From Azolla caroliniana (Eukaryota; Plantae; Polypodiophyta), in assembly GCA_043228905.1 (NCBI GenBank), contig JBHGNT010000018.1, positions 2,108,001-2,172,000 on the forward strand: 64,000 bases of DNA, read 5' to 3'. Of the stretch, positions 3,001 to 33,099 are shown piece after piece. Position numbers and translations under genes: made by a program. Each line of letters starts with the position of its first letter. Positions within the stretch are counted from its first letter, which is position 1. The notes under the pieces were generated by a model. It did not search any database. It was not told where the DNA came from and saw nothing but the letters and a program-made list of their open reading frames with translations.

Positions 3001-4359
3001 GTGTACAAGTTGAAACCGGGAGATGCCAGAAACCCGCCGAGATACAAAGCCTGAAATGTAGTGAAGGGTTTCCAGCAGAAGAAGGGAGTAGACTTCGATG
3101 AGGTTTTTGCTCTGGTAGTAAAGATGGCATCCATCTAAATGGTATTGAGCATAGCGGCAACCATGGACCTCGAGGTAGAGCAACTAGACGTCAAGACAAC
3201 ATTCCTACATGGCGACCTTGAAAAAGAGATCTACATGCATCAACTGGAAGGATTTGAGAAGAAAACGAAGGAGCACCTATTGTGCCCGTTGAAGAAGAGC
3301 TTATATGGACTGAAGCAAGCTCCCCGGCAATGGTACCGGAAGTTCGACTCCTTCATGACCGACTAAGGGTACCACAAGACGCAGGTCGATCACTGCGTGT
3401 TTGTGAAGAAATTTGACGGAGGAGATTTCCTAATACTCCTCCTATATGTGGATGATATGTTGATCATCGAACGAAACCAAGGCAAGATTCAGATGCTGAA
3501 TAAGGCTCTGAACCGGACCTTATCAATGAAAGAGTTGGGTCCGACAAGATAGATATTGGGAATGCCCATCATCCAGGACCGGTCGAAGAAGTTGTTGTGG
3601 TTGTCACAGGAGAAGTACGTGACAAAGGTGCTTTAACAATTCAACATGTCAGAGGCAAACCGGTCAGATCAACACTTCTGGCAAACTGCAAGCTATCCAG
3701 AAAACAAAGCCCGAGGACAAAGACGGAGAAGACGGATATGATGAAGATACCATATGTTTCTGCCGTTGGGAGCTTGATGTACGCAATGGTATCGGATATG
3801 CAATTGGAGTGGTCAGTCGGTTCATGAGCAATCCCGGAAGAGAGCACTGAAACACAGTAAAGTGGGTACTCTGGTACTTGAAAGGCACCTTGAGTATGTG
3901 CCTCTAGTTCGGCTCTGGTAAACCCCAACTTGAAGGATTCACAGATTCGGACATGTCCGCTGATGCGGATACTAGCCGGTCTACATCCGGATATGTCATG
4001 ACTTATGCAGGGGGTGTTGTTTCATGGCAGTCGAGGCTGCAAAAGACAGTTGTGTTGTCAACCATGGAGGCGAAGTCCATGGCAGTTGTGGAAGCTGGCA
4101 AGGAGATAATAGGGATGAAGGACTTCATCGGAGAGCTAGGGATCCAACGGGAGGATTATCGGCTCTACTGCGATAGTCAAAGTGCCATCCACCTTGCGAG
4201 GAACACAGCCTACCATTCCCAGACGAAACATAACTAGCGGAGGTACCACTAGATCCAAGAGAGAGTAGAAGATCAAGAGTTCGTGCTGACGAAGATCCAC
4301 ACGGAGGAGAACGGGTCGAATATGCTGACCAAGGTGTTGACAACCGACAAGTTGGACAT
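1..4359 (+). mobile_element. Ty1/Copia LTR retrotransposon (Tork/Tto1-like), copy A1, 3'-truncated
   Basis: Partial 5' LTR 1-491 ending CA; PBS TGGTATCAAAGC (tRNA-iMet type) 495-506; gag-PR-INT-RT-RH order; colinear with the copy at 26819-32593; cut off at 4359 by a Gypsy LTR. Confidence 0.93.
521..4359 (+). pseudogene. Copia gag-pol polyprotein, disrupted
   Basis: ATG 521 (MEELFGDMFKLTGSNY); zinc knuckle CFYCGKPG; protease WVVDSGASFH; GAG-pre-integrase LWHKRLCHMS; integrase LVHTD and NGLAERMNRT; RT LDVKTTFLHG, KSLYGLKQAPRQWY, YVDD; RNase H YCDSQSAIHLA. Many stops and frameshifts; internal deletion near 2500. Confidence 0.93.
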
Positions 4360-5195
4360 TGTCGTGAAGAATTTCGTCCAGAGGCGGAAACCGGGGAATA
4401 TCGGCTATATCGGCGGAGTGCACCATGTGCGCTCACCCTCGTATAATTGTGTGGATAATAGGAGTTAAGTCGGGACGAAGAATCCCATGTAAATCGGGAT
4501 TTATCCCACATTGTAACGCATCCCTCTCCTTGTTCTATAAAAGGAAGGGATGGTCCCTTGTAGAGGGGTCATTTTTGTATTAGTAGGGTATACCGTTAGA
4601 TTAGGAAACGTCCTCTCTTTCTCCTTCCCTTCCTCTTGTTTAGGGTTTCGTTTTTCTTCTTCTTTCCTCTGCTCCTTCCTCTTCGTCGTTCTGTGCGTCG
4701 AGTCTTGGCATCTAGCGTTTCGGTTTTCTGCCCTGTACTCTGTGCAAGACCCCGCTCGGCGCGACAAGGCCGAGAGCTCCCCGACCGGCGGCTTGGCAGT
4801 AAACAACAGTTGTATCCTATGCGACCTAGGTCCGGCTCGAAGTCAGTGTTGAATCTCGTTGTCTTGTAAATACATATACATTTGGTTGTGCATATTCGTG
4901 TCTCTGTTGGTGTGCGTGTGTGTGTCTTAGTGTTTCTTTCTTGCTTATGTACATGAGGGTGCAAGTTGGGTCGGTGTTATGTGCGTGTGTGCGAGAGTCA
5001 ATGTTGCGTGCCTGCTCTCTCTCTCTCTCTCTCTCCCTTCGGTTGCTTCTGGTGTGTTTCTGGGACGCCCCGGAAATGGTGAAGCACGACTTCCTACACT
5101 CCGCCACTCCCTAGTCCAAGACCCCCGTGGTCCCGCCTTTCTCCACGCAAGCGCGAAACTTCGCGACATATTTGGTGAACCCGACATGAAAGGCG

Positions 5196-8100: not shown

Positions 8101-9980
8101 CAGGTGGATTGCGTACATCAAGTCCCTAAATCCGGAAATTCGGCACATATCCGGGAAAGACAACACCATGGCCGACATGCTTTCTAGAGCACGGTACGAC
8201 GACGAGGACGGCATGGTTTCGGAGGATGAAGAAGTTGGCGTGGACTTCTTCGAGTCGGCCTACGTGACAACGAGGGCAAGGAGCACCCCGGCACGTAACG
8301 AGTTCAACGAAGGTGAGTACGACGGGGAGTGGCTCCAAATCGGTAGGTTCTTAAAGACGATGAAGCCGGACGCAGCATGGATGAAAGATGAAGCTAACCA
8401 AATACGGAAGAAGGCGTACCGATTCTTCCTACGGGACGGGAACATATGGAAGAACCTGAAGAAGCAAGGCGGCGTTCCACTCTGCATAGTGGCAGGGAAG
8501 GAAGAGCAAGAGGCGTTGTTGACGGAGTATCACGAGAGTCCTTGGGCTGGACACTGCGGGACATGGGCCACATTCGAAAGGCTGAAGGAGAAGTATTGGT
8601 GGTCGGGGCTGTACAGGGACGTGCACCAGTTCGTAACAACGTGCGAGAGCTGCCAAGTGCACTCCACGATCCGACATCGGGACGAGCTGCACCCGACCTA
8701 CTCGCCGACCATCCACTTCAAGTGGATGGTGAACTTAGTGACGATGTCGATGGGGGTAGGGCAGATGCGATACCTAGTGCTTGCACAAGAGGACTTGACA
8801 AATCAAGTGGAGGGTCGTGCATTGCTGAACAAGAATGGAGTATCACGAGAGTCCTTGGGCTGGACACTGCAGGACATGGGCCACATTCGAAAGGCTGAAG
8901 GTGAAGTATTGGTGGTCGGGGTTGTACTGGGACGTGCACTAGTTCGTAACAACATGCGAGAGCTCCCAAGTGCACTCCACGATCCGACATCGGGACGAGC
9001 TTCACCCGATCTACTCGCCGACCATCCACTTCAAGTGGATGGTGGACTTAGTGACGATGTCGATGGGGGTAGGGTAGATGCGATACCTAGTGCTTGCGTG
9101 AGAGGACTTGACAAATCAAGTGGAGGGTCGTGCATTGCCGAACAAGACGACCGCAGTTGTGTGTCGGTTCCTGATCGAAGAGGTGGTATGTTAGTATGGG
9201 TGTGTAGGGAAGATCGTGGCTGACCGGGGAGAGTTGGATGCGCAGGAAGCCGAAGAGTTGTTCGACCGATTAGGGTTTAAGCTCTCCCTCACTACGGCGT
9301 ACCACACGAAGGCTAACGGGAAGGTAGAATGCAGGCACAAACCGATCGTGAAGGCATTAGTACGCGCATGTGAAGGTTAAATCGGGGGTTGGCCACGGCT
9401 CCTACCTTGCGCACTATGGGCGAACCGAACTACGCGCAGTTCAGTGACCGGGTTCATGCCAACGGAGCTGATGTACGGGTAGAAGCCGATCATGCCGATT
9501 GAACGGACGATCTCCTCATGAGCCGCGGTGGACTAGAGAGACGAGATGAGCCAGGAAGAGTTATTAGCAATGTGGATTCGACAACTCGAGCGAAGACCGA
9601 AGGACGTGGAACGGGCTAAGGAGAAGTTGCACGCGGCGAGGGCGAGGAACAAGGGCTGGTTTGACTGAACTCACCGACTACGGCCGAAGAAAATCGAGGA
9701 AGGTGTTTGGGTGTTTGTTTACAACAGCAGCTTCGACAATCAGCACAAGGCGAAGCGGAAGTTTGCGAGGAGGTGGTTCGGGCCCTACACTGTAATGAGT
9801 GCAAACGACAATGCTACTTACCACCTTGCGGAGCTCGATGGGACATGGATAGCGGTGCCGGTAGCCAGGAAGAGGATCAAGGCCTTCAAGAAGCGGCATG
9901 AAGACGAGCCAGACCCGGGAAGCGAGGACAACGATGACAACTGGTTCAGAGCGAATGAAGTTTCGGAGTGCGATGGGTGA
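5196..9980 (+). pseudogene. Gypsy gag-PR / RT-RH-INT, disrupted
   Basis: Protease ALIDHGSEINLMS near 6285-6320; WFTVPKKNGTLRFIKDLQP followed by deletion of the RT core near 7510; RNase H DTSPTGIGWV; integrase H-H-C-C (YHESPWAGH...CESCQ); C-terminal WFGPY. Confidence 0.88.
8522..9147 (+). repeat. Tandem duplication, 2 x 313 bp, inside the integrase
   Basis: 8522-8834 is repeated at 8835-9147; differences are mostly transitions. Confidence 0.9.
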
Positions 9981-11859
9981 ACACGAACCGGTTTTCTCCA
10001 GCATTTGTCCCTCTCTGGCGCATGTTGCTGGATGTGCGGTTTGGTGGGGGTGGATGTCGTGAAGAAAACCAGGCTTAGGCGGAATCGGTGAAAAAGGTGC
10101 ATGAACCGGCCCTTACGCGGAGAACAGGTAGGCTGATGAAAATATACTAGGTAGTACAGATTTATTAGCTAGGAAATCGATGTCTATCTCTGTCCGAAGG
10201 GACAGAGAATAAAGATGAAGTATTCGGGATGTGACGACCCTCCTCGACGACCGATAAAAGGAAAGGGGAGATGGCTAAAAGGGGATGGTGTTTTGGCAAG
10301 GACGAGGTGTTGTCGAATTGGGAACCGAGCTCTCTCCTCCTCTATCGTTGTTCTCTGTGGGTTTTGGGTCGGTTGCCTCTACTTTGAGGAAAGCCCTAGT
10401 GCTTCCAGTAGAGGCTCCACTATGTGCGTGTGTGGTTGTGTTGTCACCTATGGTGGGTCTGTTATCAGCTTACCGGTTGTAATCTTGCAATCTCTGTAAT
10501 TATTTCCGTCTCTCGGTGTTTTCTTGTGTGATTCCCTTTCATTATTGGGTGTGTGCACGTCTCTCTTTCTTCTACATACGCGGTCGTGGTTTATTCACCG
10601 GCCAGAATCTCTCTCTTCGATCTCTTGCACTCCTCGGTCCAAGGCCCCTGCGGTCCCGCCCTAGTTTCTCACGCATAAGCGAAACAACACAACATCGGTA
10701 CATCCACATATGCTATGCTACCGAAGATCCGAAGGTGCCTCAAATTCGGCTTCTGCCAGAAATATAGCTTATGTGCTGACACCTTGTCACCGATCCGGTT
10801 TTGGATGTAGACAGTCGTCTGAACCACCTCAGCCCAGTAGAATCTGGGCATGCTCTTCTCCTCTAGCATTGCCCTTACCACGTCGACAATCGACCGTGTG
10901 TATCAGCAGCTAAATTCTCTCCAAATTCCGTTATGTTGCAGATATCTGTTGAATTGGCCGGAAAAGTATTTTTTCCCGTCATCCGACCGCAAGCACTTTA
11001 TCTTCCTCTCTGTTTCCCTTTTGACTAAGCTTTGAAGGTTCCGAAAACAGTCGAAGACTTCGCTTTTCTTCTTTATGAGGTAGATCCACGTGTGTCGGCT
11101 ATAGTCGTAGATGAAGGAGACGAAATACCGACTCCCACCTAGACTAACGTTCTATGCCGGTCCCCATAAATCCGAATGGATTAGATCGAGCTCGTTACGG
11201 CTTCAGTTTTGTTTGGTGGGGAATGGAAGCTGGTGTTGCTTCCCGAGTTTGCAAGCTTCACATATTTGGGTCTTCCGGCGACTGAACTGTTAATGTTTTA
11301 GGGTTAGGGTTAATATTTATGATAATGATGATGATTGATGATGGATTAGCGATGGGGATGCAAATGGTGAATGTTACCGGCCGGCAAAGGAGTCCAGAGT
11401 GGGAAACGGAGAGTTATTTAAGTAGTAGGAATGTGGTTGTAATTAAGCTATGAGTGTGGACGGACAGACCGGAAACGGTATGCCGTTCCGGATCCGGACC
11501 GATCCCGAACAGGTGCGGATGGAACCGTTTTGTAATACAGACCGGAAACCTATTTAAAGGCCCAGATACAATGTAATCAAGGGCGGTTAATTAATGAAAG
11601 CTTAAGCGTTGTTATCTCTCTATGTTAATTGCCGTTCTATCTTAATTGTTATATCTTATACGTGTGTTGTGAAAGACGATCATAATAAGTAACTTAATCA
11701 AGTAGGATTAAGCGTTGAGGCAGATCCGGTTGCCGTAACACCCTTTGGGGAAGTGTCTTCCGTAGACACCCTGTGTTAGGCCATTGTCCGGCCCTAAGAG
11801 TTAACACAGTTTTTGTCGACCACGATTCCTGTTTTTGCAGCGAACGACGGCACGGATGG

Positions 11860-14800
11860 ATGTCTAGATCAACACACGACCTGGTTACAGATCGAACTTG
11901 ACGCTTTGCCGAAAGGCAAAGGAGACGCGAGGCTTTCCAGCAAGCGACGCAGGAAATTAGAGCGGATCGCTCATTTTTCAACATAATCTGGAGAGTAGCA
12001 GAGAACTCCCTCTGGTTACAGCAAACATCGCACCCGGACGACAGCAGCAGCCTAAGCAGCCTCCGGGAAACCGAATCCCTTCTCCACGCGTTGGCAAACG
12101 GAGAAGGCGAAGCAAAAGCCTTTTCAGCATATGAATCAGACTCCGAAGGGGAATACAGCGTGCACACGAACTACCGTAGCAGCAACGAAACCCCGGGCGG
12201 ACCGGAGGACGAAGGATCGGATACCTTACCGACACCGGAACCGGAAGTGCTAACGCTGGAACCCCCGAAACCAGCAGAGGAAGAGCGACCTCCGACACCG
12301 GAAGTCGAAGAGGAGAGGCCTTCGTCACCAAAGGAAGAGGAAAAACAACCGACGCCGGAAACAAATCGGGAAAGACCACCAACGCCGGAGAAAATTCCGG
12401 AACGAGCACCAACACTAACAGCCCGCGCACCGATACCGGACGACGACATGCCGTTCCAGTACTCCAAGTATAGAGATGATCCGGACGCGGAAGCTCATGT
12501 GCACGCCTTTGAACAGACATGGGAAGCCAACCATGTGTCCCAGCGATTGACCCCGGAGGAAGAAGAACGCTCTAAGATAGCGGAATTTGGCGTCACATTG
12601 GAGGGACCGGCAGCAAGATGGCGCCGGACGCAGGACCCGTCTACCATCAACACCTTTGCAGATTTAAAAGCTAAATTCTTGCATTTTTTTCAAAAGGAGG
12701 TGGACCAGACCATAATGGTAGGCTTATTTTATACCATCCGGCAAGAGGCAAGGGAGAGCATTCCCCAATTTGTCATCCGGTTTCAACGGATGCATAGTCA
12801 GCTTGCCCGCGCACCCCCGGAGGAATTACGGACTATATTCCTAAACGCGCTCCGGGAACCTCTACGCACGGTTTGCACGGTAATTGACTTCCGCACAAGT
12901 ACCATCGACTAGGTCATTGACCGGGTGAGAGAGATGGAAAAGACAAACTCCTGGCTCACATTGGGAGCACTTCAATGGGCATTACCGTCCGATGAAGACC
13001 TCCGGTTTCGGCAAGCAATACAGTGCACAACCTACTTGAATTCCGGACACTCAGCACTAGAATGCACTATGAGGACGCAATGTGTAATCTGTCAATCCAA
13101 GAGCCATACGACGGATAGGTGCGAGTATAATCTGTTGAACCGGCAAGCACCGCCCGTCCGACAAATTGAGCCACGCAACAGCCGGGATGAAGAAGACGAA
13201 CGCTGGCGGCGAATGGACCGCGACCGACCGGCACAGGATGTCCGGCATGGCGATCGACGGGAAAATGATGTCCGGTACGGTGATCGGCGGGATAACTATG
13301 ACCGGCATGATCGGTACCAGGGTTACAATAAACGATACGAACATTACGATCGGGAGCACTCCCCCGGGTATCGTCAGCAACGGGAGGAATACGGCAGATA
13401 TAACGGGCCACCCCGTCAAGAGTACCGTAATAAGAAGAGCTATAACAAAAAACGGCAATTTAAAAAAGGCGGCTACCCCCGGGATTCGGAACAAGGAGCT
13501 CCAAGCAACCAACCGGTACAAAACCCCGCGCGTACCGCAGGACCTGCCCCGGGTACAACAGACAATGCCAAATCTAGCAATACCCAGAAAGCCTACTGCT
13601 ACTACTACCGACAGGAAGGCCATTATAGTAACCAATGCCCGGTGAAGAGCTATGAAAAACGACCGGCGGTAAATATGGTAGTCCCTGAGGTGGCAGATCT
13701 GCAGCAGGTGACCACAAGGTCGAAGGGCATGACCAAGGAATGGGAGACGCAGGAGACCATCCGGAAACAAGCAACGGAATGGGTAAAGAAAGCAAACGAA
13801 CAGAATGTCACAGACTTACAGCGGCAAAAGGAGAACACCGTAGGGCTTGCCGGTTGTAGTCACTCCAAGAACGAGACATGGCAGGCGTTGCAAGAGTGCC
13901 AGATTACGTTGCCACTAGGAAGACTCCTACAACTCGTGCCAAGATTCACAGAAGGACTGAAGACGGCCATGACGGCAGGAGAACCATCACCGGCACCGGT
14001 ACTCTTCTCGAATCCAGAGGAGGGACCAACAGTGGTGGACACCAGCAGTCCGGTAATCACTGCCATTGTAAAAGGGAAAGAACTCCCCGGCACAGTTATA
14101 GACGGAGGCTCTGGGGTGAATGTAATAAGCCTCCGGACGTGTGATGCCCTAGGAATCCACGATTGGGAGCCATGTCCGTTCTGGTTGCGGATGACCGATA
14201 GAAGCTCAGTGTGGCCGACAGGATTAATACGGAAATTAGAAGTCACTGTCGGCGGTCATACATTTTACATCTCGGTCGTAGTGCTACAATTACAGGCACA
14301 AGGCGCATACCCGCTATTGTTGGGGCGGCCATGGTTGAAAACGGCACATATCAAACAGAATTGGCTGAAAAATATAATTACCTTCCGGCGAGGAAAAGCC
14401 AAGGTACGGGTACCAACACAGCCAAGGAGGAGCACTGGCAAGGAGTGTACACCGTTGTATGCGGAATGCGTCAACATGCTAGAAGGGTTAGCGGACGAAG
14501 AAGAAGCTCAGTACCTGCAGGAAAACCCGAAGATCATACCCCTCTTCGAAATTGCCATTGCCGAAGCAGTAGCACCATACTTACCGCAACCGGAAGAGGC
14601 TGAAGCAGAACCGGATAAAGACGCAATCCGGGAGTTACGGCAAGCGCAGGAAGCGTTGGAACGGGAAATGGCCGTTTCACAGCGCATGAAAGCGTCGCAA
14701 CTGGAAGAGGTGAACCTAGGCACCACGGACGAAGCAAAACCGGTGCACATCGCCAAGGAGATGAAGTCCGAAGACAAAACGGCGATGATCACACTTCTCA

Positions 14801-17478
14801 CGGAATTCCGCGATGTGTTTGCCTGGTCATACGAAGATATGCGAGGACTTGACCCTCAATTATACCAGCATCAGGTGCACTTGAGCAAGGACGCAAAACC
14901 AGTGGCACAAAGACGGTACCGGATGAATCCCAATTATGCCGCCAAAGTCAAGGAGGAAATCGACAAACTGCTAAGAGTTGGCTTTATCCGTCCGGTAAAG
15001 AAAGCGACATGGCTGAGCCCGATCATAGTCGTACCGAAGAAGAACGGAAAAATTCGAGTTTGCGTGGACTACCGGAAACTCAATGCGGCTACGGTAACGG
15101 ATGCGTTTCCACTTCCGTTCACAGATGGAGTGTTGGATGCCGTCGCCGGCCATGAGGTCTATAGCTTCCTAGACGGATTCAGCGGGTATAATCAGATCCG
15201 GATGCACCCCGACGACCAAGAGAAAACAGCATTCGTCACCGAATGGGGGGTCTTTGTGGCTGTGGTGATGATGTTCGGACTCAAAACGGCACCGGCAACA
15301 TTTCAACGAATCATCATGGAAATCTTTGGTGAATATATACCGGCTTTTATGCAGGTTTTCCTTGACAATTTCGCCGTCTATAGCCGGGAGGAGGACCATT
15401 TTCAGCACCTCCGTCTTTGTCTAGAAAAGTGTAGAGCGTACCAGCTAAGCTTGAATCCATCAAAGTGTGTATTTGGCATGTCCAGTGGAACTTTATTAGG
15501 ACATATTGTGAGCCAGGAAGGTATTGCAGTCGACCCGGACAAAGTGAAAGCCATATTAGAAGCACCGGCGCTAGCAATGGCAAAGGCATTAAGCCGGTTC
15601 TTAGTCCAGATCCGGTGGCACAGCCGGATGCTCCGATACTTAGCCGACCTGGCTACACCGTTGCATGCCGCCGTACATCGGACACCATTCCAGTGGACCG
15701 ACACCGAGGATAGAGCGTATAGGGCCCTTAAGGTACTATTGTCGCAGGCACCGGTAGTACAACCTCCGGATTGGAGTAAAGAATTTCACGTGTTCGTAGA
15801 CGCCTCCGACATCGCAATCGGAAGCGTACTTATGCAGCTTACGGAGCCAAAATGGTACCGGCCAGTGTACTATGCCAGCCGAAAGCTATCCCAAGCAGAA
15901 CGAAACTACTCTACCACGGAACGGGAAGCTCTAGGGATGATCTACAGTGTGACAAAGTTTCGGCATTATTTATTGGGAAGTTTTCCTTCCATGTAGATCA
16001 TTCGGCACTCCTTTACCTGGTGTCCAAAGCGTCACTCACCGGCAAATTGGCCCGGTGGACCTTACTGTTACAGGAGTTTGAGTTTGAAATATTCCACCGA
16101 CCCGGTATACAGCATGTTGTGGCGGATTACTTAAGCTGATTAGAGTCCGGAGAGACGGGTGACGGAGTAGCGGATGAGTTTCCGGATGCAGAGCTGTTTC
16201 GAGTCACTACGGAGACAGTAGCAGATGAGACAGTGGCACAGGAAGACAAATGGCTCACAAATATGCACCAGTTTCTGAGCACAGGACTGCCTCTGGAAGA
16301 GATGAACCGGGACGAACGGAAACGCCTGGCGGTGCAAAGCTGACATTTCTGCTTACTGCAAGACACACTATACCACAAGGGCGCGGGCGGCATATGGAGA
16401 CGGGCGGTGCGCAACGATGAAAAGGAACTGATACTGAGGGAAGCCCACTGCGGAGTTGCCAGAGGTCACTATGCCAGAGATGCGACGGCTAGAAAAATAT
16501 GGCAAAGTGGCCTATGGTGGCCAATGACATTAAGAGATGCGGTACGATACGCAAAAGAATGTGACCTATGCCAGAGAATGGGCCAGCCAACGGAGCAAGC
16601 TCGTATGCCACACCAGCCGGTACTACCACTCGAGCCATTCCAGAAGTGGGGGCTGGACTTTGTAGGACCCTTCAAGCCACCGGCAATGAGAACGGGTAAT
16701 CGGTACGTCATCGTTGCTACGGATTATTGCACGAAATGGGTGGAGGCCAAAGCATTAAGGGATAACACCGCTGCGTCAATGGTGAAGTTTCTATATGAGT
16801 ACATCTGGTGCCGTTACGAATGCCCAATTGAATTAATAAGCGACCAAGGGGGGCACTTTCTCGGCCAAGTAGTGGAAAGCCTGACGACATTCTATGCCGT
16901 TGTACACAAACGGAGCACACCTTACTATCCACAGGCGAACGGTTTAGCGGAATCAACGAACAAGACGCTCCAGAATATCCTTCGGAAGATCTTCAACGAA
17001 AACCAGACGGATTGGGACACAAAGCTACATAGCGCACTTTGGGCATACCGGACGGCATACAAAACGAGCATCCGAACAACACCGTTCCGGTTAGCGTTCA
17101 GACTAGAGGCGGTCATGCCGGTAGAATTCCAAGTACCCAGCTTACGGATCCAGCTACGGGAACGGTTGAACGAGAAGGAGTCGGAGGCAATAAGGTTGAC
17201 AGCGTTGTGTGAGCTCGAGGAACAATGACTGGCCAGCATCCTACATTTAGAATTGGAGCAACGGCGACGGAAAGCATTTGTCGACCGGCACAGGAAAGGT
17301 AACGAAAAAATGTTCGCAATCGGCAAACCGGTGTTAGTATTCCACACCCGGATGGGCAAGATGCTGGGTAAACTACGGTTTAGATGGACCGGACCGTATT
17401 GGCTAACACGGGAGTATAATGGGTCCTACCAGTTAGGGACACTTGCCGGCGAAGTGCTAGGCAAATGGGTCAACGGCG
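11860..17478 (+). pseudogene. Gypsy gag-pol single frame (gag, zinc knuckles, PR, RT, RNase H, DDE integrase), lightly disrupted
   Basis: ATG 11860 is in frame with ORFs 12091-12912 and 12925-15996; PR VIDGGSGVN; RT RVCVDYRKLN, FLDGFSGYNQI, VFLDN; RH VDASDIAIG; INT KWGLDFVGP, YYPQANGLAES; WTGPY. A few stops and one frameshift near 15980. Confidence 0.93.
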
Positions 17479-17838
17479 AAGTTCTCACACATTGTCAATT
17501 TGATTTCGCGTTGATGAGGGTTGCATCATTCTTCGCCGCGTATCATTCTTCGACTCCGTCTCCAAAGGGGGTATCCCATCGTGGTCACCAAAAGGTGTTG
17601 TACGTTTTAGGGTTAGGGTTTGATAATGATAAAGATAGGAATAGGGTTAGCAATGATGGTAGATTGATAATGAATGTGTGATGATGAGAGAGGACGTGAA
17701 GAACAAGACAACCATTGAGGGGTGGGGGGTGGTGCCTAGAATGGCTCCACCCCCCTCCCAAGGGGATTCAACGTTAAGGGGGAGAGAGAGAGAGAGAGAT
17801 GACAAGAGAGAGAGAGAGAGATTAAGAGAGAAAAAAAA
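17479..17838 (-). mobile_element. Captured fragment of a type-B element (R-U5, PBS, 5' leader)
   Basis: 17596-17838 matches the LTR-B segment at 11288-11371 plus 19286-19465; PBS TGGTGACCACGATGGGA 17574-17590; leader matches 21510-21560. Confidence 0.82.
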
Positions 17839-18295
17839 TCCGCCTGTGCCTTGTAATGCGTCAATTGCCTTTGATATGTGCTTTGTAATTTCTGCAATAT
17901 TGTTGACGCTCTCTCTTTGTCTTCCTGTTGCTGCCTCTGGAGCTCCATCCGGAACTTCTCCGCCTCGTCCAAGCGTCTTGTATTTTCCGCCCGTCGTCAG
18001 ATCAACGCACGGCTCAAGCAAAAGACGGATGATTTTGAGCACCTGCACCGGAACTACAAACGGCTGGAAACGGAGCATAAAGAACGGATGGCCGAGCTCC
18101 AGTAGGCAGTTGATCGGGCTGAGACGGCGATCGTCGACGAACGGGCGGAAATACAAGACGCTTGGACGAGGCGGAGAAGGTCCGGATGGAGCTCCAGAGG
18201 CAGCAGCAAGAAGACAAAGAGAGAGCGTCAACAGTATTGCAGAAATTACAAAGCACATATCAAAGGCAATTGACGCATTACAAGGCGCAGGCGGA
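17839..18295. repeat. Inverted repeat, arms about 160 bp, spacer about 135 bp
   Basis: 17839-17998 is the reverse complement of about 18136-18295, with a few mismatches. Confidence 0.9.
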
Positions 18296-18896
18296 GGACA
18301 ACGTCAAAATCATCAAACAACTGAAGGAGGAACGGCAAGCGGCGAAAACCAAATCGCAATTGGGAACGAGCCGGATTCAGTCCATCCTCCGGGCATGGCT
18401 GAATCAGACAAAACACTTGATTGATGAAAGCTCCGTAAAATGGTGGACAAAGTGGGCACAAAATGCGGCAGAACTCCAGTTGCTACGGGCGGATGTGGCA
18501 AACCGGCGGAAGGAAGGAGATGATTGTTATACGTTGACTTCCGAGGACTTCACCGCCATACGGGACGAGCTGGCCGATGACTTCCAAGTCCTGGCAGATG
18601 AACAGCTGGCGCAGGTCAGGCAGCTCGTAGCTCAGCTAGACGATGATAGGCTGGACGCTCAAATCCAGTTTGAAAGCTACGAGCGGTCCCGGGTGCGGGA
18701 AGAAAAAGCACGGGAAGCGGCAACGGTTAACCTTAGTGATGAGGAACCGTCGCCGGCTGAGGGCCAGCCGGGAACCAGTCAACCGGAGACCACTACGACG
18801 CAGGGAGCAACGACGGAGACGTCGGTGTCAGAGCAACAAACGGAGGAGCAGCCGCAACAACCACCAACGAACCCGCCGCAACAGACATCAACATAG
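17998..18896 (+). pseudogene. Extra 3' ORF of the Gypsy element, coiled-coil-like protein (N-terminus lost)
   Basis: ORF 18162-18896 (244 aa, E/Q/K/R/A-rich) extends upstream across one frameshift and one stop (INARLKQKTDDFEHL...). Confidence 0.6.
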
Positions 18897-19387
18897 CAAC
18901 AACAACAACAACAACCACTTCCAGATGAACCATTGGAGCCTCTCGAACAAAGCATTCTGGACAGATTTTGGCGACCACGAAACTGTGTTAACAATTAAGA
19001 TATAACAATTAAGACAGAACGGCAATTACACAGAGAGATAACAACGCTAAGCTTTTATTAATTAACCGCTATTCATTACATTGTATCCGGGCCTTTAAAT
19101 AGGTTTCCGGTCTGTATTACAAAACGGTGCCATCCGCACCTGTTCGGGATCGGTCCGGATCCGGAACGACATACCGATTCCGGTCTGTCCGTCCACACTC
19201 ATAGCTTAATTACAACCACATTCCTACTACTTAAATAACTCTCCGTTTCCCACTCTGGACTCCTTTGCCGGCCGGTAACAGTGAACGACATGATGGTGAG
19301 AGAGATCATGAAGATGTTCACAAGCGTTGAGGGGTGGGGGGTGGTGCCTAGAATGGCTCCACCCCCCTCCCAAGGGGGTTCAATGTA

Positions 19388-19438
<51 letters not shown>

Positions 19439-21039
19439 TGACAAGAGAGAGAGATTGAGAGAGAAATGATCCTTGTTTCATTCATTCCCCATAAGGGGTT
19501 AAATAGGTACAAAAGGGTAGATACACAAGGGTGCAAGCCCCTTGGTCATTCACACCTAGTCACTCACTGACACCTCTTTGTATCCACCACACTCAAACTT
19601 ACATTCACACTCATAATCGTATAACATTACACATACATATCAACGCATCACATCTTTCACCCTCACTTATCACACTTATCAATCACCCGTACATCTCGTA
19701 CGATAACACAATATGGCACGCCCGTGGGAGAGTGCCTTGCACATCGATCCCACATGCCTTGATTATAATCTTTCTTCGACCGGAACTTACATCGGTCGTC
19801 TCAACGATCGACTCCCTCGATCGGAGCGCTTGACTCGAACATCTCCTTCGGTCAGTGACTTCATCGACATGAACATTCCCATTCTGTCGTTTCACGAACT
19901 ATATCATGGGTCCAAAATCGCGTCGTTTGTATGTGTGTTCCTCCTTGAGTTGTTGTGAGTTGGGTGTTGATTGATTCCATTTCTTTTAGCTTCATGTGTT
20001 TTCGAAATTCCGTAGGTGCCCTTCGATTTTTAAATTTTAATTATGTACCCTTATGTTTATGAAATTTGCTCGTTATGTCCTTAGATTATTAAAATTTTCA
20101 GAATGCCATCATGTTTTTCGAAATTCTTCGGATGCCCTCAGGTTTTCAAAACTCCTCGAATGCCCTTATCATTCTCTTTTTCCCTCTTTTCTCTTTTCTT
20201 TTTTCTTCTTTTTCTCTTGCTTTTGTCGTTTCCCTCCTTTCTATTTGTCTGTCTCCTCCAATTCCTTCCTTCTTCTTATTCTTGTTTTCTTCTTCTTCAA
20301 CGTCTCTTTCCCTTCTTTTGTTTTGGTGGTAGCTTTGGGTCATCTTCCTATCTTTCTTTTCCTTTTCTTTGTTCTTCCACTGCTAATGGTGTTTTTCCTT
20401 CCTCTTCCTTCTCTGCCTATCCATGTTTCTTTTGTCTTTCTCTTCTTGATCTATTTCTTCTTGTTTCTTATTCTCTGTTTCTCACTGTCTTTTGCTTGCT
20501 TCCTCTTTATCCTTTCCTTGTACGGCGTCGTTTACCGTTCTTCGTCATTCATCACTTCGTTGTCCATCTAGGTCGACGTCTCTATCTCCATCACTGGCTG
20601 CTAATCCGTTGACGTTGGTGTCGCCTCCTCTCGGCCATTTGGCCCTGTCCGGTCGGTCTCTTTCCAGTGTTCGACCCTCGGTTTGGCCACCACTTTCCGG
20701 CCTCTCTAGCCTTTTCCGTCTATGTCTTGGCCATTGTCCCGTTGGCCTCTGTCACTGTCTCTGTCGGTTTCCATCCGTTTGAGTCCGCCTATGTTCGGCC
20801 CGTTTGACCCATCCTACTGTGTCTTGTGTCTTTTTGGTCTCCTTTGTCTAGTGCATCCGACCGTGTCTTTCTAGCGTTGTTGGTTGATGTCTGGTCTCCG
20901 TCTGCATCTCCATATCCGTCTTCTTCAACCCTTCAATGTTAACCGACTCGGGTTCCAGTTCCAATTCCGACTCTCTCCGCATTTCTTCTTCTCGAACCAT
21001 ATCTTGTGCATTCTCAGCACATCCTGCCGGCATCCACTC

Positions 21040-21213
21040 TGTTACAGGCATGACCATATAATATCCCGTGGTGAGAATTTACCGTAGCATTCTCACCACG
21101 GGAAGTAATCCTCCCCTTCTTTACACTCTTGTTTAACCCTCACACTTATCCACGTGTATAGAATGCTACGGTAAATTCTCACCACGGGATATTATATGGT
21201 CATGCCCGTAACA
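21040..21213. mobile_element. 174-bp foldback element with 54-bp TIRs, TGTTAC...GTAACA ends and a 5-bp TSD
   Basis: TIRs 21040-21093 and 21160-21213 (1 mismatch); TSD CACTC at 21035-21039 and 21214-21218. Confidence 0.85.
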
Positions 21214-23711
21214 CACTCCACACACTACTTCTTCCTCCGCAGTCTCCTGGTGGGCTTCTCTTTCCAGTCGTGTTGACACCGGTTCCCTCTGTGTCGTTGT
21301 TTGTCCAGTCATGCATTTTGCACCATGCTTTTGAAAACACACACATTGTCATTAACCGCACACTTGAACATACGTTTGTTGCGTATCCTTTTGTGATGTC
21401 CTCTCGCACAACATCACCGTGTTGCATTCCTCGACCTCGATGGCTTCCAATCAATATCACCATTTCCTACACATCGTTCATTTGATTTCTCGCACATTTC
21501 GTCATTGCCATGTCTTTGCCGCGTAGTAGTCTTCGACTTCGTCTCGAAAGGGGTGTCTCCTTAGTGATCGCCAAAAACTGTGTTGTTAATCCTGGCTGGA
21601 CAAGCCACTAACACAGGGTGTCCCTTTGGAACACTTCACCAAAGGGGTGGTACGGTAAGGAATGTGCAAACCGTAATACAAAACCTATCCTTCCCGGTTA
21701 CTATCCAGAAAGATTAACTTGATACACGCGTATGATAATCACATTAAGCACAAAACGGCATTAACAAGATAAACAATACGTAAATCCACAACACTTCTCT
21801 ATTAATTATCCGTTGTTAATTACATCGTTTCCGGATCCTTTTATAGGTATCCGGCTGTGTTACAAACCGGTGCCAACCGGCAACCGGCTACGAACCGGTC
21901 CAGATCCAGATCGGCATATCGATTCCGGGTCCGTCCGTCCGATCTTATAATTATCATAATTTATCTAATTACAACTCCCAAAACCGGCTCCCCGTTCATA
22001 CTCTAGCCTAACCGGCCAACATAAACTTCGGCAATCCGAACACAACTTGTTTCGATTGCAAATCTTGAAGCCTTCGGTAGTTGACGTGGCCGATACACTT
22101 ATGCCAGAGATCGATGTCCGATTCAATCTTTTGTACCTTGGCAAACATGGCAATGCCAACGTCATTTGTGTTGAGGATGAACATCCTCCCTTCTCTGCGC
22201 CCTTGCGCAATTATCCGGCCTTCTTCCTCGATTAAGCACCCGAGGTGCGTAAACTGCACCTGCATTCCTTGGTCGACTATTTGTCTAACCGATACCAAAT
22301 TCTTTGTGATAGTCGAAATGTGTAATATGTTCATTAGCTTTCACTTTTGTCCGACATGGCTTAAAGGGATTTCTCCGACATGCACAATTGGGTGAGGGGT
22401 GTCGTCTCTGGTTTCGACAATCCCCGGTTGTTCTTATTTCTCTAAAAACGAGAACCACTCTTCATGGCTCGTCATATGGTTAGATGCTCCAGAATCAACG
22501 TACCACACTTCCTCCGACCCGGTTCGGTCTTCTTCATCGAGTTGGCCTTGTGCTTCATCACAAAGGTTGGCCCCTTTCCGGTCTTCCGGGTTCCGGATCC
22601 TTCCGATCCTTCTGCGTAGTGCGAGCTTTGTCGATTTCCCTGTCTGGTCTTTGCCGAATCCCGATTTATCCGAATCGGCGCGCTTCTTCCAACACTCGCT
22701 TTCTCTGTGTCCTTTCATGCCACAATACCAACATTCCGTGTCGGCCTTTCCTTGCCGGTTTCCAGCACTGGCATGACTCCCCCTACTTGTGGAGTGTCCA
22801 GAACTGCTGTCTCTATGCCCTTGGTTCTGCTCTTGCCAGCCACCTCCACTGCATGCCGACCCACATCGTCCTCCACGCCCACAGGGCCGATCCGCCTCCG
22901 TGTACAACATATGTTTGTCCGATTGAGTGGTCCTTGACCCACTCCGTGGTTTTCTTCGACCATCAACATTGATTGTAAGTCGAAGAAGGACGGTGGCTTC
23001 TCCCGAGTGCAAATTGTCGTTCGGATTGGCCCGTACCATTGTCATAAACCACCGAGACAGATCTGGACCATCTCGTCTTCTTCCACCGTTACGTTGATGG
23101 ATCCTAGAGCATCGTAGATTTCCTTAATCTTGGTGGTGTAGTCCGTAACCGACATATCTCTCTGTCGGATGTTGTTCAGCTCTTGTAGGAGCTGCAACTT
23201 ACGGGATGTGGTACTTGCGGCGAAAATCTTCCGTAGATTTTCCCAGGCCTCCTTTGGCGTTTTTGCATCCTTGATGTAGCCGAGCATCTAATCATGCACA
23301 CAGGACACGAGGCAATACAATACTCGGCTCCCTCCTTGCTCCCATGCTGGGAATTCTTTGTGTGCCAACTCTAGAGCTACCTCGTTAGTTCCTTCCACAT
23401 AGCTCCAATATCCATGCCCTAGTAGGTACTGGTGCATCTTATATGACCAAGATGTATAGTTGCTCCGATCGAGCTTTTCTGTAGGAAGTGAACTTGCCAT
23501 ACCTCTGTCCATCTTTGGTTCTCTTCTGTTCTTCACTAGGTGTTAGGGTTTGTCTTCGGAAGCGTCTTTCGGCTGCAGAGGAGTCTCAACCCTCACGCTC
23601 TGATACCATGAAAAAGCTAGCATGCGGAAGCTTGACAAAACTGGTTTAGCCGTGCAGCAACAAAGAATAGAAAACACAGGTTCAATGGAAGCTTGAGAAT
23701 AGTTAGCATAC

Positions 23712-27142: not shown

Positions 27143-27681
27143 GACGAGTGCCCGGCAAGATCCGGATGATGCAGGCCCGGTGAGGAGCGCTCTCCGGATG
27201 AAGAGACATATTCGTAAATATGTTTCTGAGAGTCCATCGTGGCTATATTTGTAAATAGCCGAAAAGTCATATTAGTATAAATATGACTTAGGGCAAACTT
27301 TTGTGAGTGTTGTTGTTATTCTTGTCTACGCGAGATCAGAGCGCATAACTGTGTACATAGAGAGAGAGAGAGAGAGGAAGAGGTCGTTGCCTCAGTTGTA
27401 ACCGCCGCCTGTGGTGAAGATCGTGAGCACGAGGTCGTTGCCTCCGTGAACTCACTGTTGTACATTCTAACATAGTGATAGTTTGCATCCCGTGGGCTGC
27501 CGTGGTTTTTCCCTTAGTTTGGGTTTTCCACGTAAACATCCTGTGTACTCTTCTCTTCTTCGTGTCATGCATTCATTACCCGTTTTTCTGTGTATGATTC
27601 TAAGCTCGGTTGTGGTCGAGCGTTGTGCATACGGAGCGTTTAGTTCCCGTCAAGTGGTATCAAAGCGAAACGACACAGAAA

Positions 27682-30600
27682 ATGGACGATTCGTTGGGAG
27701 GCATGTTCAAGCTCACCGGCTCCAACTATTCGGTGTGGAAGTCGAAGATGAGGGACATGCTCGTGGTTAAAGACCTCTGGCTGCCGGTTCAGTTCGTGGA
27801 CAAGAGACCGGACAAAATCAACGCCGCAATATGGGAGGTGATGCACATGAAGACAACGGCGTACATACGGTGCTTCATCGACATGAGCCTGTACAACAAC
27901 TTCAATGAAGAGAGCAAGGCTCATGAGCTCTGGGAGAAGATCGGCATTATGTTCCGAAACAAAAATGTTGTCAATCAGGTTTCGATATTCTGAAAGCTAG
28001 TAAGACTCCGGTACCAAGATGGCTCCAGCATGGCGGAGCACATGAATGCCTTCCAGGGGTTGATCCACCAGGCAACATCATTGGAAGTACCTCTCGCCGA
28101 TGAGGTACTAGCGCTACTCCTGCTCGGTTCCCTCTCGGATAGCTGGGAGACGTTGGTTGTCACTTTGGGCAACACCGGGCCGGAAGGGAAACGGTTATCC
28201 CTAGCAAGAGTAAAGTCGAGCTTGCTAGATGAGGAGGCGCGTCGGAAAGATAAAGATACGAGCTCCGACTCCAAAGCGCTCCTTACCGAATCGGAACGCG
28301 GAAGACAAAGAAACCGTAGTCCCCAGAACTAGGAAAAGTCGGGGACACGGTCAAAGTCAAGGGGGAGACCTACTTGCTTCTATTGCGGCAAGCTGGGACA
28401 CTTCTAGAAGAACTGTCGGCATTTCCGAAAGGACAAGGAAACCGACGGTACCGATTCGAAGTGGATACCGGACCAGAACGGTAAAGACCGGAGGGGAACG
28501 GACCGGAAGGGGACGACGGCAATCGCGGCAAGTGAAGAAGAGTTCATGTTCATCACCGAGGAGAGTGAGATAAACCTTGCCGGCGACGAGATGACCTGGG
28601 TGGTCGACTCCGGAGCATCGTTCCACCTTACCTCGGACCGGAAATGCTTCTCATCCTACTCAGCCGGTGATCACGGCTGTGTCCGGATGGGGAATGAAGG
28701 AACATGCCGAATTGTCGGCATAGGAGACATGTGGTTGTCAACACCAACCGGTTGCAAGATGTTGTTGAAGCATGTCCGACACGTTCCGGAGGTTCTTCTG
28801 AACCTGATATCAGCCGGTCAGCTAGACGATGAAGGCTACATGGGTAGCATCCAGAACGGTGTTATGAAGTTCAGCAAAGGGAGCCTGATTGTGGCTCGGG
28901 CCTGGAAGGTAAACACGTTGTACTTGATGAATGCCCGGTTATGTCCGGAGGAAGTGAACGTGGCATCTGACACTACCGGTGAGCTGTGGCACAAGAGGTT
29001 GTGTCACATGAGCGAGAAGGGGATGAAGAGGCTTGCAGACGACAACCTCATTCCAGTGAAGAACGTGCACTTGGAGAAGTGCACTGATTGTCTGGCCGGT
29101 AAGCAAAACCGGACCTCCTTCCGACCGAGGCGACCGATGAGACGTAATGCACCACTGGAGTTGGTGCATACTGATGTCTATCAAGTGGACACGAAGTCAC
29201 ATGCAGGATCGCAGTACTTCGTGACGTTCATAGATGACCACAGCCGGAAGCTGTGGGCCACACCGCTGAGGACGAAGGATCAGGTGTTATACGTCTTCAA
29301 AGAGCTCCACGCAAGAGTGGAAAGAGAAACCGGCCGGAAACTGAAGGCGGTTCGAGCAGATAACGGAGGTGAATACCGGGGGCAGTTCGAGGAGTACTAT
29401 CGCTCGAAGGGAATCCGGCTCAATTTTTACCGTGCCAAAGACACCGGAACTAAACGGGCTGGCCGAGAGGATGAACCGGACCATAATGGAGAGGGTCCGG
29501 AGTATGCTAGCACATGCAAAACTACCCAAGGAGTTTTGGGTTGAGGCACTGTCGACGGCGACATATGTGATAAACAGATCACCCTCAGTACCCTTGGAAG
29601 GAGACACACCACACAGAGTCTGGACCGGTAAGGAAGTATCCTACCGGCATCTGAAGGTATTCGGGTGTCTCGCGTACGTGCATATAGCTAAGGACCGGAG
29701 AGGAAAGTTGGATCCAAAGACCCGTCCATGCATATTCCTCGGTTACGGCGACGATGAGTTCGACTACCGAGTGTGGGACCTGGTCGACAAGAAGGTATTC
29801 CGGAGTCGAGATATTATCTTCATGGAGGACAAGACGCTCGCCGACTAGGAGTCGGAGAAGAAGATAATGAACTCCGAGTCGACCGGTAAGCATCGATTCT
29901 ACGATGAGCAGACCCAACCGGCAAGAGACCGGTTAGCACTCGAGGAACCAGCCGGTTACGGTGAGATACCGAATCAGTAGAAGAAGAAGTAGAGGAAGCT
30001 GAAACCGGAACCGGTCAAGACCCCGAATCGGATTCGGATAAAGAGAAAATAGAGGAGCCGGTTACCGAAGCCCAGAGACGGAGATATCCTCTCAGAGAGA
30101 GAAGGGCCCCCCAGAGATTTCCGGATGCAGAGCATGTGCTGTTAACCAATGAGGGGGAGCCAGAAAGCTTCGAAGAAGCGAAGGATGACACCCATAGCCG
30201 CAAATGGTTAAGTGCCATGTAGGATGAGATGGATTCCCTGCATGAGAACCATACGTACGAATTGGTGGAGTTGCCAAAAGGAAAGCGGGCACTCCGAAAC
30301 AAGTGGGTGTACAAGTTGAAACCGGGAGATGCCGGCAACCCCCCGAGATATAAAGCCAGGATCGTGGTGAAAGGGTTCCAATAGAAGAAGGGTGTAGACT
30401 TCGACGAGATATTTGCCCCGGTAGTAAAGACGGTGCTGAGTATAGCGGCAAGCATGGACCTCGAGGTAGAGCAGCTACACGTGAAGACGGCATTCCTTCA
30501 CGGCGACCTCGAAGAGGAGATCTACATGCAGCAACCAGAAGGATTCGTGGAGAAAGGGAAGGAGCACCTAGTCTGCCGGTTGAAGAAGAGCCTCTACGGG

Positions 30601-31713
30601 TTGAAGCAGGCCCCCCAGCAATGGTACCGGAAGTTCGATTCCTTCATGGCCGATCAAGGGTACCAGAAGACGCAAGCCGATCACTGCGTGTTTGTGAAGA
30701 AGTTCGAAGGAGGCGACTTCCTGATACTCCTTCTGTACGTGGATAACATGTTGATCGTCGGACGGGACCAAGTCAAAATACGGATGCTGAAGAAGGCTCT
30801 CAACCGGACCTTCTCAATGAAAGACTTGGGTCCGGCAAGACAGATGTTGGGGATGCATATTATCCGGAACCGGTCAGTGAAGCAATTATGGCTGTCACAG
30901 GAGAAGTACGTGACAAAGGTGCGTCACCAGTTCAACATGTCAGATGCGAAACCAGTCGGATCGTCACTTCCGGCAAACTGCAGGTTATCCGGTAAGCAAA
31001 GCCCGAAGACGAAAGCAGAGAAGGCGGATATGATGAAGATTCCATATGCTTGTGCCGTCGGGAGCTTGATGTACGCAATGGTGTGTACCCGACCGGATAT
31101 AGGATACGCAGTCGGAGTGGTGAGCCGGTTTATGAGCAATCTCTGCAAGGAGCACTGGAACACGGTCAAATGGATACTCCAGTATTTGAAGGGCACTTCA
31201 AATATGTATCTCCGATTCGGCTCCGGAAAACCTCAACTTGACGGTTTCACCGATTTGGACATGTCGGCTGATGTGGATACCAGTCGGTCTACATCCGGGT
31301 ATGTAATGACATATGCAGGGGGAGCTGTTTCATGGTAGTCGAGGCTGCAGAAGACGGTTGCATTGTCAACCACGGAGGCGGAGTACATGGCGGCTGTGGA
31401 AGCCGGCAAGGAAATATTATGGATGAAGGACTTCATCAGAGAGCTCGGTATCCGGCAAGATGAATACCGGCTCTACTGCGACAGTCAAAGTGCCATCCAC
31501 CTTGCTAAGAATGCGGCCTACCATTCCCGGATGAAGCATATCCAGCGAAGGTATCACTAGATCCGGGAAAGAGTAGATGACCAGGAGTTGGCACTGACGA
31601 ACATCCACACGGCCGAGAACGGGTCAGATATGCTGACCAAAGTGTTGATACCCGACAACCTGGATGCATGCCGGAAGAGGATCGGACTAGTAAGACACCC
31701 CATGCCGGAGTGA
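27682..31713 (+). pseudogene. Copia gag-pol polyprotein, disrupted by stops and frameshifts
   Basis: MDDSLGGMFKLTGSNYSVWK; WVVDSGASFH; VRADNGGEY; CIFLGY; KTAFLHGDLEEEIYM; TRPDIGYAVG; STTEAEYMA. Confidence 0.93.
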
Positions 31714-31817
31714 AGGGGGAGTTTTTTGGGAGACAGGTCCCACCGTATGGGAAGGGAGAAGAACAGTGCTGATGAACATACTCGGCTGAGGCCGATAGGC
31801 TGAGGCCGAAACCGTAT

Positions 31818-32087
31818 GAGGAGTACCCGGCTACGGAGAGCCGGATGGTGCAGACTCGGTGAGAACCGGATGAGGAGTACCCGGCTACGGAGAGCCGGAT
31901 GGTGCAGACCCGGTGAGAACCGGATGAGGAGTACCCGGCTACGGAGAGCCGGATGGTGCAGACCCGGTGAGAACCGGATGAGGAGTACCCGGCTACGGAG
32001 AGCCGGATGGCACAGACCTGGTGAGAACCGGATAAGGAGTACCCGGCTACGGAGAGCCGGATGGTGCATACCCGGTGAGAACCGGAT
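31818..32087 (+). repeat. 54-bp tandem repeat x5 in U3 of the 3' LTR
   Basis: Same unit at 31818, 31872, 31926, 31980, 32034. Confidence 0.92.
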
Positions 32088-33099
32088 GACGAGTGCCCGG
32101 CAAGATCCGGATGATGCAGGCCCGGTGAGGAGCGCTCTCCGGATGAAGAGACATATTCGTAAATATGTTTCTGAGAGTCCATCGTGGCTATATTTGTAAA
32201 TAGCCGAAAAGTCATATTAGTATAAATATGACTTAGGGCAAACTTTTGTGAGTGTTGTTATTTTGTCTGCACGAGATCAGAGCGCGTAACTGTGTACATA
32301 GAGAGAGAGAGAGAGAGGAAGAGGTCGTTGCCTCAGTTGTAACCACCGCCTATGGTGAAGATCGTGAGCACGAGGTTGTTGCCTCCGTGAACGCATTGTT
32401 GTACATTCTAACATAGTGATAGTTTGCATCCCGTGGGCTGCCGTGGTTTTTCCCTTAGTTTGGGTTTTCCACGTAAACATCCTGTGTACTCTTCTCTTCT
32501 TCGTGTCATGCATTCATTACCCATTTTTCTGTGTATGATTCTAAGCTCGGTTGTGGCCGAGCGTTGTGCGTACAGAGCATTTAGTTCCCGTCAAGAACAA
32601 CTTCTAGAATTGATTGAAGTTGTGTTGCATCCATGTTTGAAAGAGATAAAATCCCAAAGAACTCGCTCTCCATGTCGCCTGTTCACATCGGGTTCACCAC
32701 ATGTCGCGTCAAAGAAATTGGCGTGTCCAGGTGGAACCACTAGGGTTCTGAACCAGGAGAGTGAAAATAAGAAGAAGGAAGGGAAGAGTAGGAAATCGAA
32801 CCAAAAGTATCCCAATAGCCACGAGTAGCTTGTAGTCATACCCGTGAAGACAAAAATCCTTGTATCATTCCACTGATGTAATGAAATTTAGTGTGCAGAC
32901 ACAGATTGGAAAGCCCTCAGAAAGAGATTTCCAATGAGCTATAGAGCGTCAAAAAGGGACGTCTGAATTAAGAGTTATGAATAAAACACCATACACAACT
33001 ACCCCTCAAGCACGGAAGAAGAAAGAATGCCAAATTGAAAATCTCTATTTCTCGAGAAGAAAAAAACCTTTACAAAATATGTCTCTTTGAATGTTCTAG

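Follow-up and report, generated by a model that had tools for sequence, protein, structure and literature searches.

A reversed tRNA-Arg(UCU) site in the polypurine-tract position of a Ty3/gypsy lineage in Azolla caroliniana may load a second tRNA primer

According to the reviews cited here, LTR retrotransposons and retroviruses use a tRNA to begin the minus strand and an RNase H-resistant purine tract to begin the plus strand, and the cited parts of PMC5371799, PMC10886601, PMC13332604, PMC13191261 and PMC6317226 name this polypurine tract (PPT) as the plus-strand primer. For Ty3/gypsy elements, the passages used state a PPT before the 3′ LTR for most, not all, members. A 64,000-nt stretch of Azolla caroliniana DNA (contig JBHGNT010000018.1, positions 2,108,001 to 2,172,000), called the window throughout, holds an LTR element in which the PPT position before the 3′ LTR is occupied by a reversed tRNA-Arg(UCU) site (19714-19753). 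The canonical Ty3 and HIV-1 systems, as set out in the cited sections of PMC5371799, PMC13332604 and PMC10886601, are alike in having a tRNA-primed minus strand at the primer-binding site (PBS), the order RT-RNase H-integrase, TG...CA LTRs, a short spacer between the plus-strand primer site and U3, and tRNA primer copying that stops at ~18 nt. In those systems, however, an RNase H-resistant PPT serves the plus strand, whereas a reversed tRNA site stands here instead.

Two further systems come close in single features. The bipartite PBS of Ty3 and Ty1, in the account given in the cited part of PMC5371799, likewise splits the primer contact between acceptor stem and T arm, with one of the two parts in Ty3 lying near the RNA 3′ end; there, however, the RNA is complementary to a single minus-strand primer, whereas here the RNA is identical to the tRNA, and the plus-strand tRNA can differ from the minus-strand primer. 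The non-autonomous Helenus LTR elements also carry a tRNA-derived sequence, but in the cited part of PMC10886601 that sequence serves as a promoter within the LTR, the elements have a PPT and the author rules out a role in priming, whereas the tRNA-like stretch described here lies outside the LTR and the PPT is absent.

No report of a tRNA-primed plus strand turned up in a literature search whose coverage left aside most subscription journals and the supplements of bioRxiv preprints. To our knowledge, other PPT-free routes (hepadnavirus primer transfer, tyrosine-recombinase elements) use no second tRNA.

The site and its element in the window

The site at 19714-19753 corresponds to the reversed 3′ 28 nt of host tRNA-Arg(UCU), minus one base, and is interrupted by a 13-nt hairpin. 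On the plus strand, the LTR terminus ...GATAACA runs to 19708 and is followed by the spacer CAATA (19709-19713) and by TGGCACGCCCGTGGGA (19714-19729); the motif of LTR end, CAATA and tRNA-like sequence that the earlier note had read on this strand is thereby found at 19708-19729. That note had also seen no purine tract just inside the 3′ LTR, and we find none before the 3′ LTR in the window, with purines at 8 of 15 nt and a longest run of 4 within 30 nt. An ordinary PBS sequence, TGGCGATCAC, lies on the minus strand at 21573-21564, at the opposite end and on the other strand as had been claimed, and an 18-nt PBS-like copy lies at 17590-17573. The parts of the site are as follows.

19714..19730, minus strand: inverted tRNA site, proximal block; its sense strand corresponds to tRNA-Arg(UCU) nt 59-76 including CCA
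19731..19743, minus strand: 13-nt insert with a 4-bp stem, falling between tRNA positions 58 and 59
19744..19753, minus strand: distal block, corresponding to tRNA nt 49-58 (T arm), 9/10 matching in the window copy
19709..19713, minus strand: 5-nt spacer from CCA to the LTR start (2 nt in coding families)

Compared with tRNA-Arg(UCU), the proximal block lacks tRNA C66, and it has C for G59 in the type B family. The features of the outer type B element and of the family A element nested in it are listed below.

19281..19708, minus strand: type B 3′ LTR, U3 side, with a TATA-like CCTATTTAA near 19500-19508
11288..11371, minus strand: remainder of the type B 3′ LTR (U5 end), detached by the nested element, with telomere-like repeats
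19754..21563, minus strand: type B non-coding internal region, with two long open frames without a Pfam match
21564..21573, minus strand: ordinary 5′ PBS, 10 nt, tRNA-Arg(UCG/CCG) type, 7 nt from the 5′ LTR
21581..22021, minus strand: 5′ LTR of the outer element, derived from coding family D, with no relation to the type B 3′ LTR
11283..11287, no strand: target-site duplication, left copy TGAAC
22022..22026, no strand: target-site duplication, right copy TAAAC, one difference
11372..11806, plus strand: nested family A 5′ LTR, sitting within the type B LTR
11367-11371 and 19281-19285: GTGAA duplication around the nested family A element
11814..11826, plus strand: family A 5′ PBS, 13 nt, tRNA-Arg(UCG) type, one substitution in the window copy
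11902..17477, plus strand: family A gag-pol (gag, RT, RNase H, integrase), with stops and a frame break, truncated in the integrase end
17478..17838, minus strand: second type B fragment, comprising the U5 part of the LTR, a 5-nt spacer, an 18-nt tRNA-Arg(UCG) PBS (17590-17573) and leader
17839..19280, no strand assigned: rearranged family A 3′ part, comprising a sense extra ORF piece and then an inverted, partly deleted LTR-A

The stretch 11288-22021 had been described as one minus-strand element. It is a single insertion, with TGAAC/TAAAC flanks, the halves of a copia integrase region on both sides and empty sites elsewhere, but BLAST finds no match between its two LTRs, which do not form a pair of copies, and the gag-pol inside it is that of the nested family A element and runs on the plus strand. 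The outer element is mixed, combining a family D 5′ LTR with a type B body and 3′ LTR, and the switch lies at the PBS. A second mixed D/type B element (L243/L353; C2, ~14.587-14.595 Mb) has an exact 5-bp duplication. Such elements with unrelated LTRs likely arose by plus-strand transfer between molecules at the PBS. As regards the LTRs alone, the same D/type B mix is seen at L039, L044 and L048.

The family A copy of the window has lost its own 3′ site, its 3′ part being rearranged (17839..19280). This nested element (11372-19280) has the U3 end of its own LTR at each border, inverted on the right, and contains a folded-back PBS junction at 18945-18995; similar head-to-head LTR joints flank a tRNA-Arg(UCG) copy at L190 and L193. 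RNase H motifs are legible in the window copy as VDAS and TERE in the translation and as HVDH and VADY from the DNA, and we take these to be the motifs that usually bear the RNase H catalytic residues.

The type B LTR contains a G/C hairpin and a GA microsatellite, and its U5 end carries the plant telomere-like repeats TTAGGG/TTTAGGG (window 11288-11343 and 17596-17625). Type B leaders (window 17550-17572; L239, L240) have CCTTTGGA right behind the 10-nt PBS. This stretch is complementary to the anticodon-stem side of tRNA-Arg(UCG), with similar letters in the U5 of families A and D, and may extend the primer contact at the 5′ end as well.

Elsewhere in the window, another LTR family (34739-40107, 40110-48319 and 4740-10420) has the PBS TGGTGAACCCGACGTG, presumably of the tRNA-Trp type, and is possibly Phygy-like; it provides a control, in that G-rich tracts stand before its 3′ LTRs. 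The window also contains two related copia elements (11-4356 and 27156-32595), a short inverted-repeat element (55990-56322) and a 24-nt tandem array (45080-45247).

Orientation and spread of the site

The window alone leaves the direction of the type B LTR open, and coding relatives were therefore fetched. The minus direction claimed by the earlier note holds, but it is gag-pol in the coding relatives that fixes it, the TATA-like box and the window being insufficient. Families A, D and F have sense gag-pol upstream of the site, an ordinary PBS at the 5′ LTR and 5-bp duplications at both ends. In addition, the distance from CCA to the LTR is fixed at 2 nt in the coding families despite their differing LTRs.

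Family A shows the order LTR, spacer, 13-nt PBS and sense gag-pol in 30/30 loci, which were found by that junction. At the other end, 20 copies were chosen by their integrase end and were thus not selected for the site; 19 of them carry a 17-nt site core 2 nt upstream of the 3′ LTR with at most 2 substitutions, 14 of these cores being unchanged, and the twentieth is interrupted before the LTR. None of the 19 copies with the site shows a PPT before the 3′ LTR. Paired family A ends have a 5-bp duplication in 9/10 cases (7 exact), and the LTR pairs are 94.9-98.4% alike; the elements have therefore moved with the layout in which the site precedes the 3′ LTR.

The site recurs in the other families. 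Of the 30 family D LTR loci, 10 are preceded by the site and 17 are 5′ LTRs leading into a PBS; the remainder are two solo LTRs and one cut copy, and a PPT is found in none of the 30. In family F (pol DNA ~65% alike), four loci were fetched, and both of those reaching the 3′ LTR (L253, L255) carry the site. Two further non-coding families have it as well (L348, L352). All 30 loci found with the site-LTR junction carry the site with at most 3 substitutions, a circular count in that the query selected the set, and in all six type B elements recovered in full the site stands at the 3′ LTR. Across the 523-Mb genome, a pattern of site plus LTR start gives 3,365 exact matches, vs 0 for a reversed-pattern control.

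Over 25 sites, purines account for 8-10 of the last 15 nt and the longest run is 3-4, which does not make a PPT. The question raised earlier of whether other elements with this LTR type have an ordinary PPT can be answered for the related elements fetched: none has one at that place. Distant relatives with both LTR ends visible (L275, L283, L309, L336) have ordinary purine tracts.

Outside the assembly, two metagenome contigs, L257 and L273, carry the site, one of them with a third stem variant. The host range beyond this genome rests on these two contigs, whose host may be the same species. Contigs from four DNA sequencing runs cover the site, without proof of it in other species, and no RNA run was listed among the holders. 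The site pattern has 0 matches in viral contigs, and a protein search of the viral contigs returned 1 distant element, which has a PPT.

The host tRNA and the case for a second primer

Host genes for tRNA-Arg(UCU), Arg(UCG) and Arg(CCG), called by ARAGORN, were found. The Arg(UCG) and Arg(CCG) tRNAs match the 5′ PBS over 10-18 nt. The first 11 nt of the site from CCA match tRNA-Arg(UCU) perfectly, comprising the whole 3′ acceptor strand and CCA, and 16-17 of 18 nt match with one bulged base; the host tRNA match of at least 10 nt including CCA on which the earlier note had made its proposal depend is thus present. On the sense strand, the site consists of tRNA nt 49-58, a 13-14 nt insert, and nt 59-76 with CCA, one base short. 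The insert falls at the 58/59 step, the border of the classical 18-nt PBS. No family has the missing base, and type B also departs from the tRNA at positions 54 and 59. Furthermore, families A, B and D, whose 5′ primer is Arg(UCG), and family F, whose 5′ primer is Arg(UCU), share a 3′ site of the Arg(UCU) type. Diverged tRNA-Arg(UCU) gene clusters lie on contigs C4, C11 and C22 (L169-L172, L180, L184-L186).

In the 4-bp stem of the insert, 7 cells are changed on both sides between families, a result reached in 0/500 shuffles (18 rows, kinship uncorrected), and the outer helix has no two-sided changes. We count the covarying inner stem in favour of tRNA priming. A different hairpin, formed in the sense RNA, can take up the last 10 nt, with 89% of cells paired and one-sided changes only. 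The sense RNA therefore has a structure of its own at the site, and we count this second hairpin against tRNA priming. A full tRNA mimic in the RNA was rejected, a 5′ acceptor-strand match occurring within 200 nt in only 2/25 sites, and pairing of the 5′ PBS with the 3′ site as its main role fits family F only.

The element RNA is identical to the tRNA, and therefore only minus-strand DNA can pair with the tRNA; on that strand, the tRNA 3′ end points into U3. Genomic fusions bear on whether a tRNA does sit there. CCA is added to tRNA post-transcriptionally (in the cited part of PMC6317226), and a genomic tRNA end with CCA beside an LTR therefore marks a copied mature tRNA. The tRNA-Arg 3′ patterns have 33 genomic matches, and the 14 that continue with CCA all reach a TGTT LTR-type end within 2-11 nt. 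Ten of the 14 are placed on the U5 side, the established position of the primer, by their flanks for some and by inference from the spacer or the TATA direction for others, while 4 loci, representing 2 events, are at U3. The three CCA-bearing Arg(UCG) copies are all at U5.

L163-165 belong to a tandem array and count as one event; here TG and an A-like LTR follow tRNA nt 20-76, with PBS and gag behind the LTR in one copy. At L176, tRNA nt 14-76 are followed by GG and an LTR start; 600 nt away, an LTR behind an ordinary site begins with a sequence 92% like it. A third event, L344, came from a further search and has exactly 18 nt (tRNA nt 59-76), including the base missing from the elements; here a partial U3 repeat, the tRNA, TG, 5′ LTR, PBS and gag-pol follow one another, and at its 3′ end this element carries an ordinary gapped site. 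RT copying a tRNA primer stops at m1A58, that is, after 18 nt, according to the cited part of PMC13191261. The three U3 fusions are independent events, all with true tRNA-Arg(UCU) and CCA and without the insert, among thousands of copies. L163-165 and L176 could alternatively come from a template switch of RT onto the tRNA in minus-strand synthesis, and L344 could come from such a switch plus transfer between molecules; on the template-switch route, too, the tRNA must pair with the site, but it need not be extended. A tandem array at L250-L251 (C2:12.00-12.02 Mb, 99.5% alike) has a type B body with a newly captured 57-nt copy of the tRNA as its 3′ site and may replay the origin of the site.

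The DNA end has left a second trace. Two 5′ LTRs (L241=L340 and L339) have retained the spacer, but not the CCA, at their left end, which places the DNA end directly after CCA; at L241=L340, the 5-bp duplication lies outside the kept spacer. A strict search pattern for kept spacers gave 0 matches, and a looser one gave 4, of which 2 are real and 2 are mutated ordinary sites.

With the site at the PPT position and the match to tRNA-Arg(UCU) reversed, a second tRNA likely primes the plus strand. At a probability of roughly 0.7, we propose that this second host tRNA, tRNA-Arg(UCU), would anneal to minus-strand DNA at the site and prime plus-strand synthesis, and we hold equally firmly that a recently active plant Ty3/gypsy lineage would have dropped the PPT, with both strands tRNA-primed, a structured second site available only on minus-strand DNA, and fusions stopping at the m1A58 border. 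The proposal of a second tRNA as plus-strand primer, already made in the earlier note, is supported by the position of the site, the absence of a PPT, the tRNA match, the recurrence of the site in several families and the three U3 fusions, while the priming step itself we infer.

In the proposed course of events, tRNA-Arg(UCG), replaced in some families by tRNA-Arg(UCU), would prime the minus strand at the ordinary PBS. RT would copy U3 and the site after the first jump, and RNase H would remove the RNA. The tRNA-Arg(UCU) would then pair through the 10-11 nt at its 3′ end, and probably also over nt 49-65, with a DNA hairpin looped out at the 58/59 step. Extension from CCA would place the spacer, 2 nt long in coding families and 5 nt in type B, at the start of the DNA end, to be trimmed off at integration. 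The primer would normally be removed; where it is kept, RT would copy to the modified A58 or beyond, giving the fusions. The one-base gap and the hairpin would persist because the site is inherited via RNA and is not recopied from the tRNA.

A different primer is conceivable. RNase H could cut the element's own tRNA-like RNA after CCA, leaving a G+C-rich piece that primes like a PPT. RNase H must recognise the tRNA end anyway when it removes the minus-strand primer, the RNA sense strand is tRNA-like, a DNA end starting after CCA is predicted here too, and PPT selection in Ty3 depends on local hybrid geometry (cited part of PMC5371799). The sense RNA can also fold a 9-bp hairpin ending at CCA, but not while it is paired with DNA, and the rarity of a 5′ acceptor strand nearby argues against a full tRNA fold. 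The three U3 fusions, moreover, hold true tRNA sequence, with the missing base present and the insert absent, and the 3′ site keeps to the Arg(UCU) type whichever tRNA is the 5′ primer. We consider a primer cut from the element's own RNA unlikely.

It is less probable still, and in our judgement improbable, that the site is a captured tRNA piece with another job (packaging, RT pausing, RNA-end pairing) and that the plus strand starts otherwise, for example at a purine-rich stretch ~45-65 nt upstream. Short purine-rich stretches do occur upstream in A, B, D and F, and the family F 5′ PBS, being complementary to the 3′ site, could form a duplex with it; such pairing is limited to ~4 bases in A, B and D, however, and both the constant CCA-to-LTR distance in coding families with differing LTRs and the kept spacers that start directly after CCA speak against this reading. 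That the LTR direction is mistaken, with 19714 an ordinary PBS of an opposite-running element or an inversion relic, we regard as scarcely credible: the type B element in the window codes for nothing and the same tRNA is an ordinary 5′ primer in other families, but reading the type B LTR in the plus direction is rejected by the coding relatives A, D and F, with the site downstream of sense gag-pol, the PBS at the 5′ LTR and 5-bp duplications, and by the likeness of the family A LTR pairs, which marks the layout as one that moved. Priming by a second tRNA remains our preferred reading.

Lineage and consequences

The elements have the features of Ty3/gypsy. The domain order gag, protease, RT, RNase H and integrase was found by Pfam in window frames and the relative P0002, the protease weakly (E 0.07). 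Direct TG...CA LTRs with a 4-6 bp duplication are present in family A, type B and others, the outer element of the window with its unrelated LTRs being exceptional, and the PBS after the 5′ LTR matches host tRNA-Arg(UCG) or (UCU) over 10-18 nt. The nearest named relatives of the window RT are from liverworts and ferns. A quick tree of 51 RT-RNase H rows unites families A, D and F with four close metagenome contigs on a single branch (support 100), apart from the groups of contigs with Asp-type PBS and with Ogre/Retand-type PBS; this tree, with its deeper forks open, has no curated references and leaves out two rows for the window's other gypsy family, which had no usable RT match.

Families A and D have a long sense extra ORF after integrase (L142:343-3042; window 17988-18896), rich in charged residues and with no Pfam match above the cut-off. 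Neither a chromodomain nor an archaeal-type RNase H (aRH) had a Pfam match in the window frames, three relatives and three extra-ORF pieces, three short broken window pieces being unscanned. The absence of a chromodomain match is shared with Athila, Tat, Phygy and Selgy, the plant non-chromovirus Ty3/gypsy groups in the cited part of PMC6317226. The label Tat/Ogre given to the lineage earlier does not hold, no aRH having been found.

Judged by the table of PMC6317226, the lineage fits none of Athila, Tat, Phygy and Selgy in all features. Tat there (TatI-III, Ogre, Retand) shares the extra ORF and the 5-bp duplication but has aRH, and a tRNA-Arg primer as seen here is listed for TatIII, Ogre and some Retand. 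Athila is alike in the lack of aRH, the 5-bp duplication and the extra ORF, but has an Asp/Asn primer and an antisense extra 3′ ORF, in contrast to the Arg primer and sense ORF here. Phygy and Selgy have a 4-bp duplication, a tRNA-Trp or -Ala PBS and no extra ORF in the same source, whereas here we find 5 bp, Arg and an extra ORF.

The site is real and general in this genome, and it departs from the textbook PPT rule. For annotation, PPT-based filters will score such elements down, and PBS-based calls can misorient non-coding copies. With ~45 nt and one tRNA, the site also offers a short substrate for asking how RT picks and removes plus-strand primers. If the proposed priming is true, a tRNA can be loaded onto single-stranded DNA as a primer, and the PPT rule would be dispensable in a lineage of thousands of copies.
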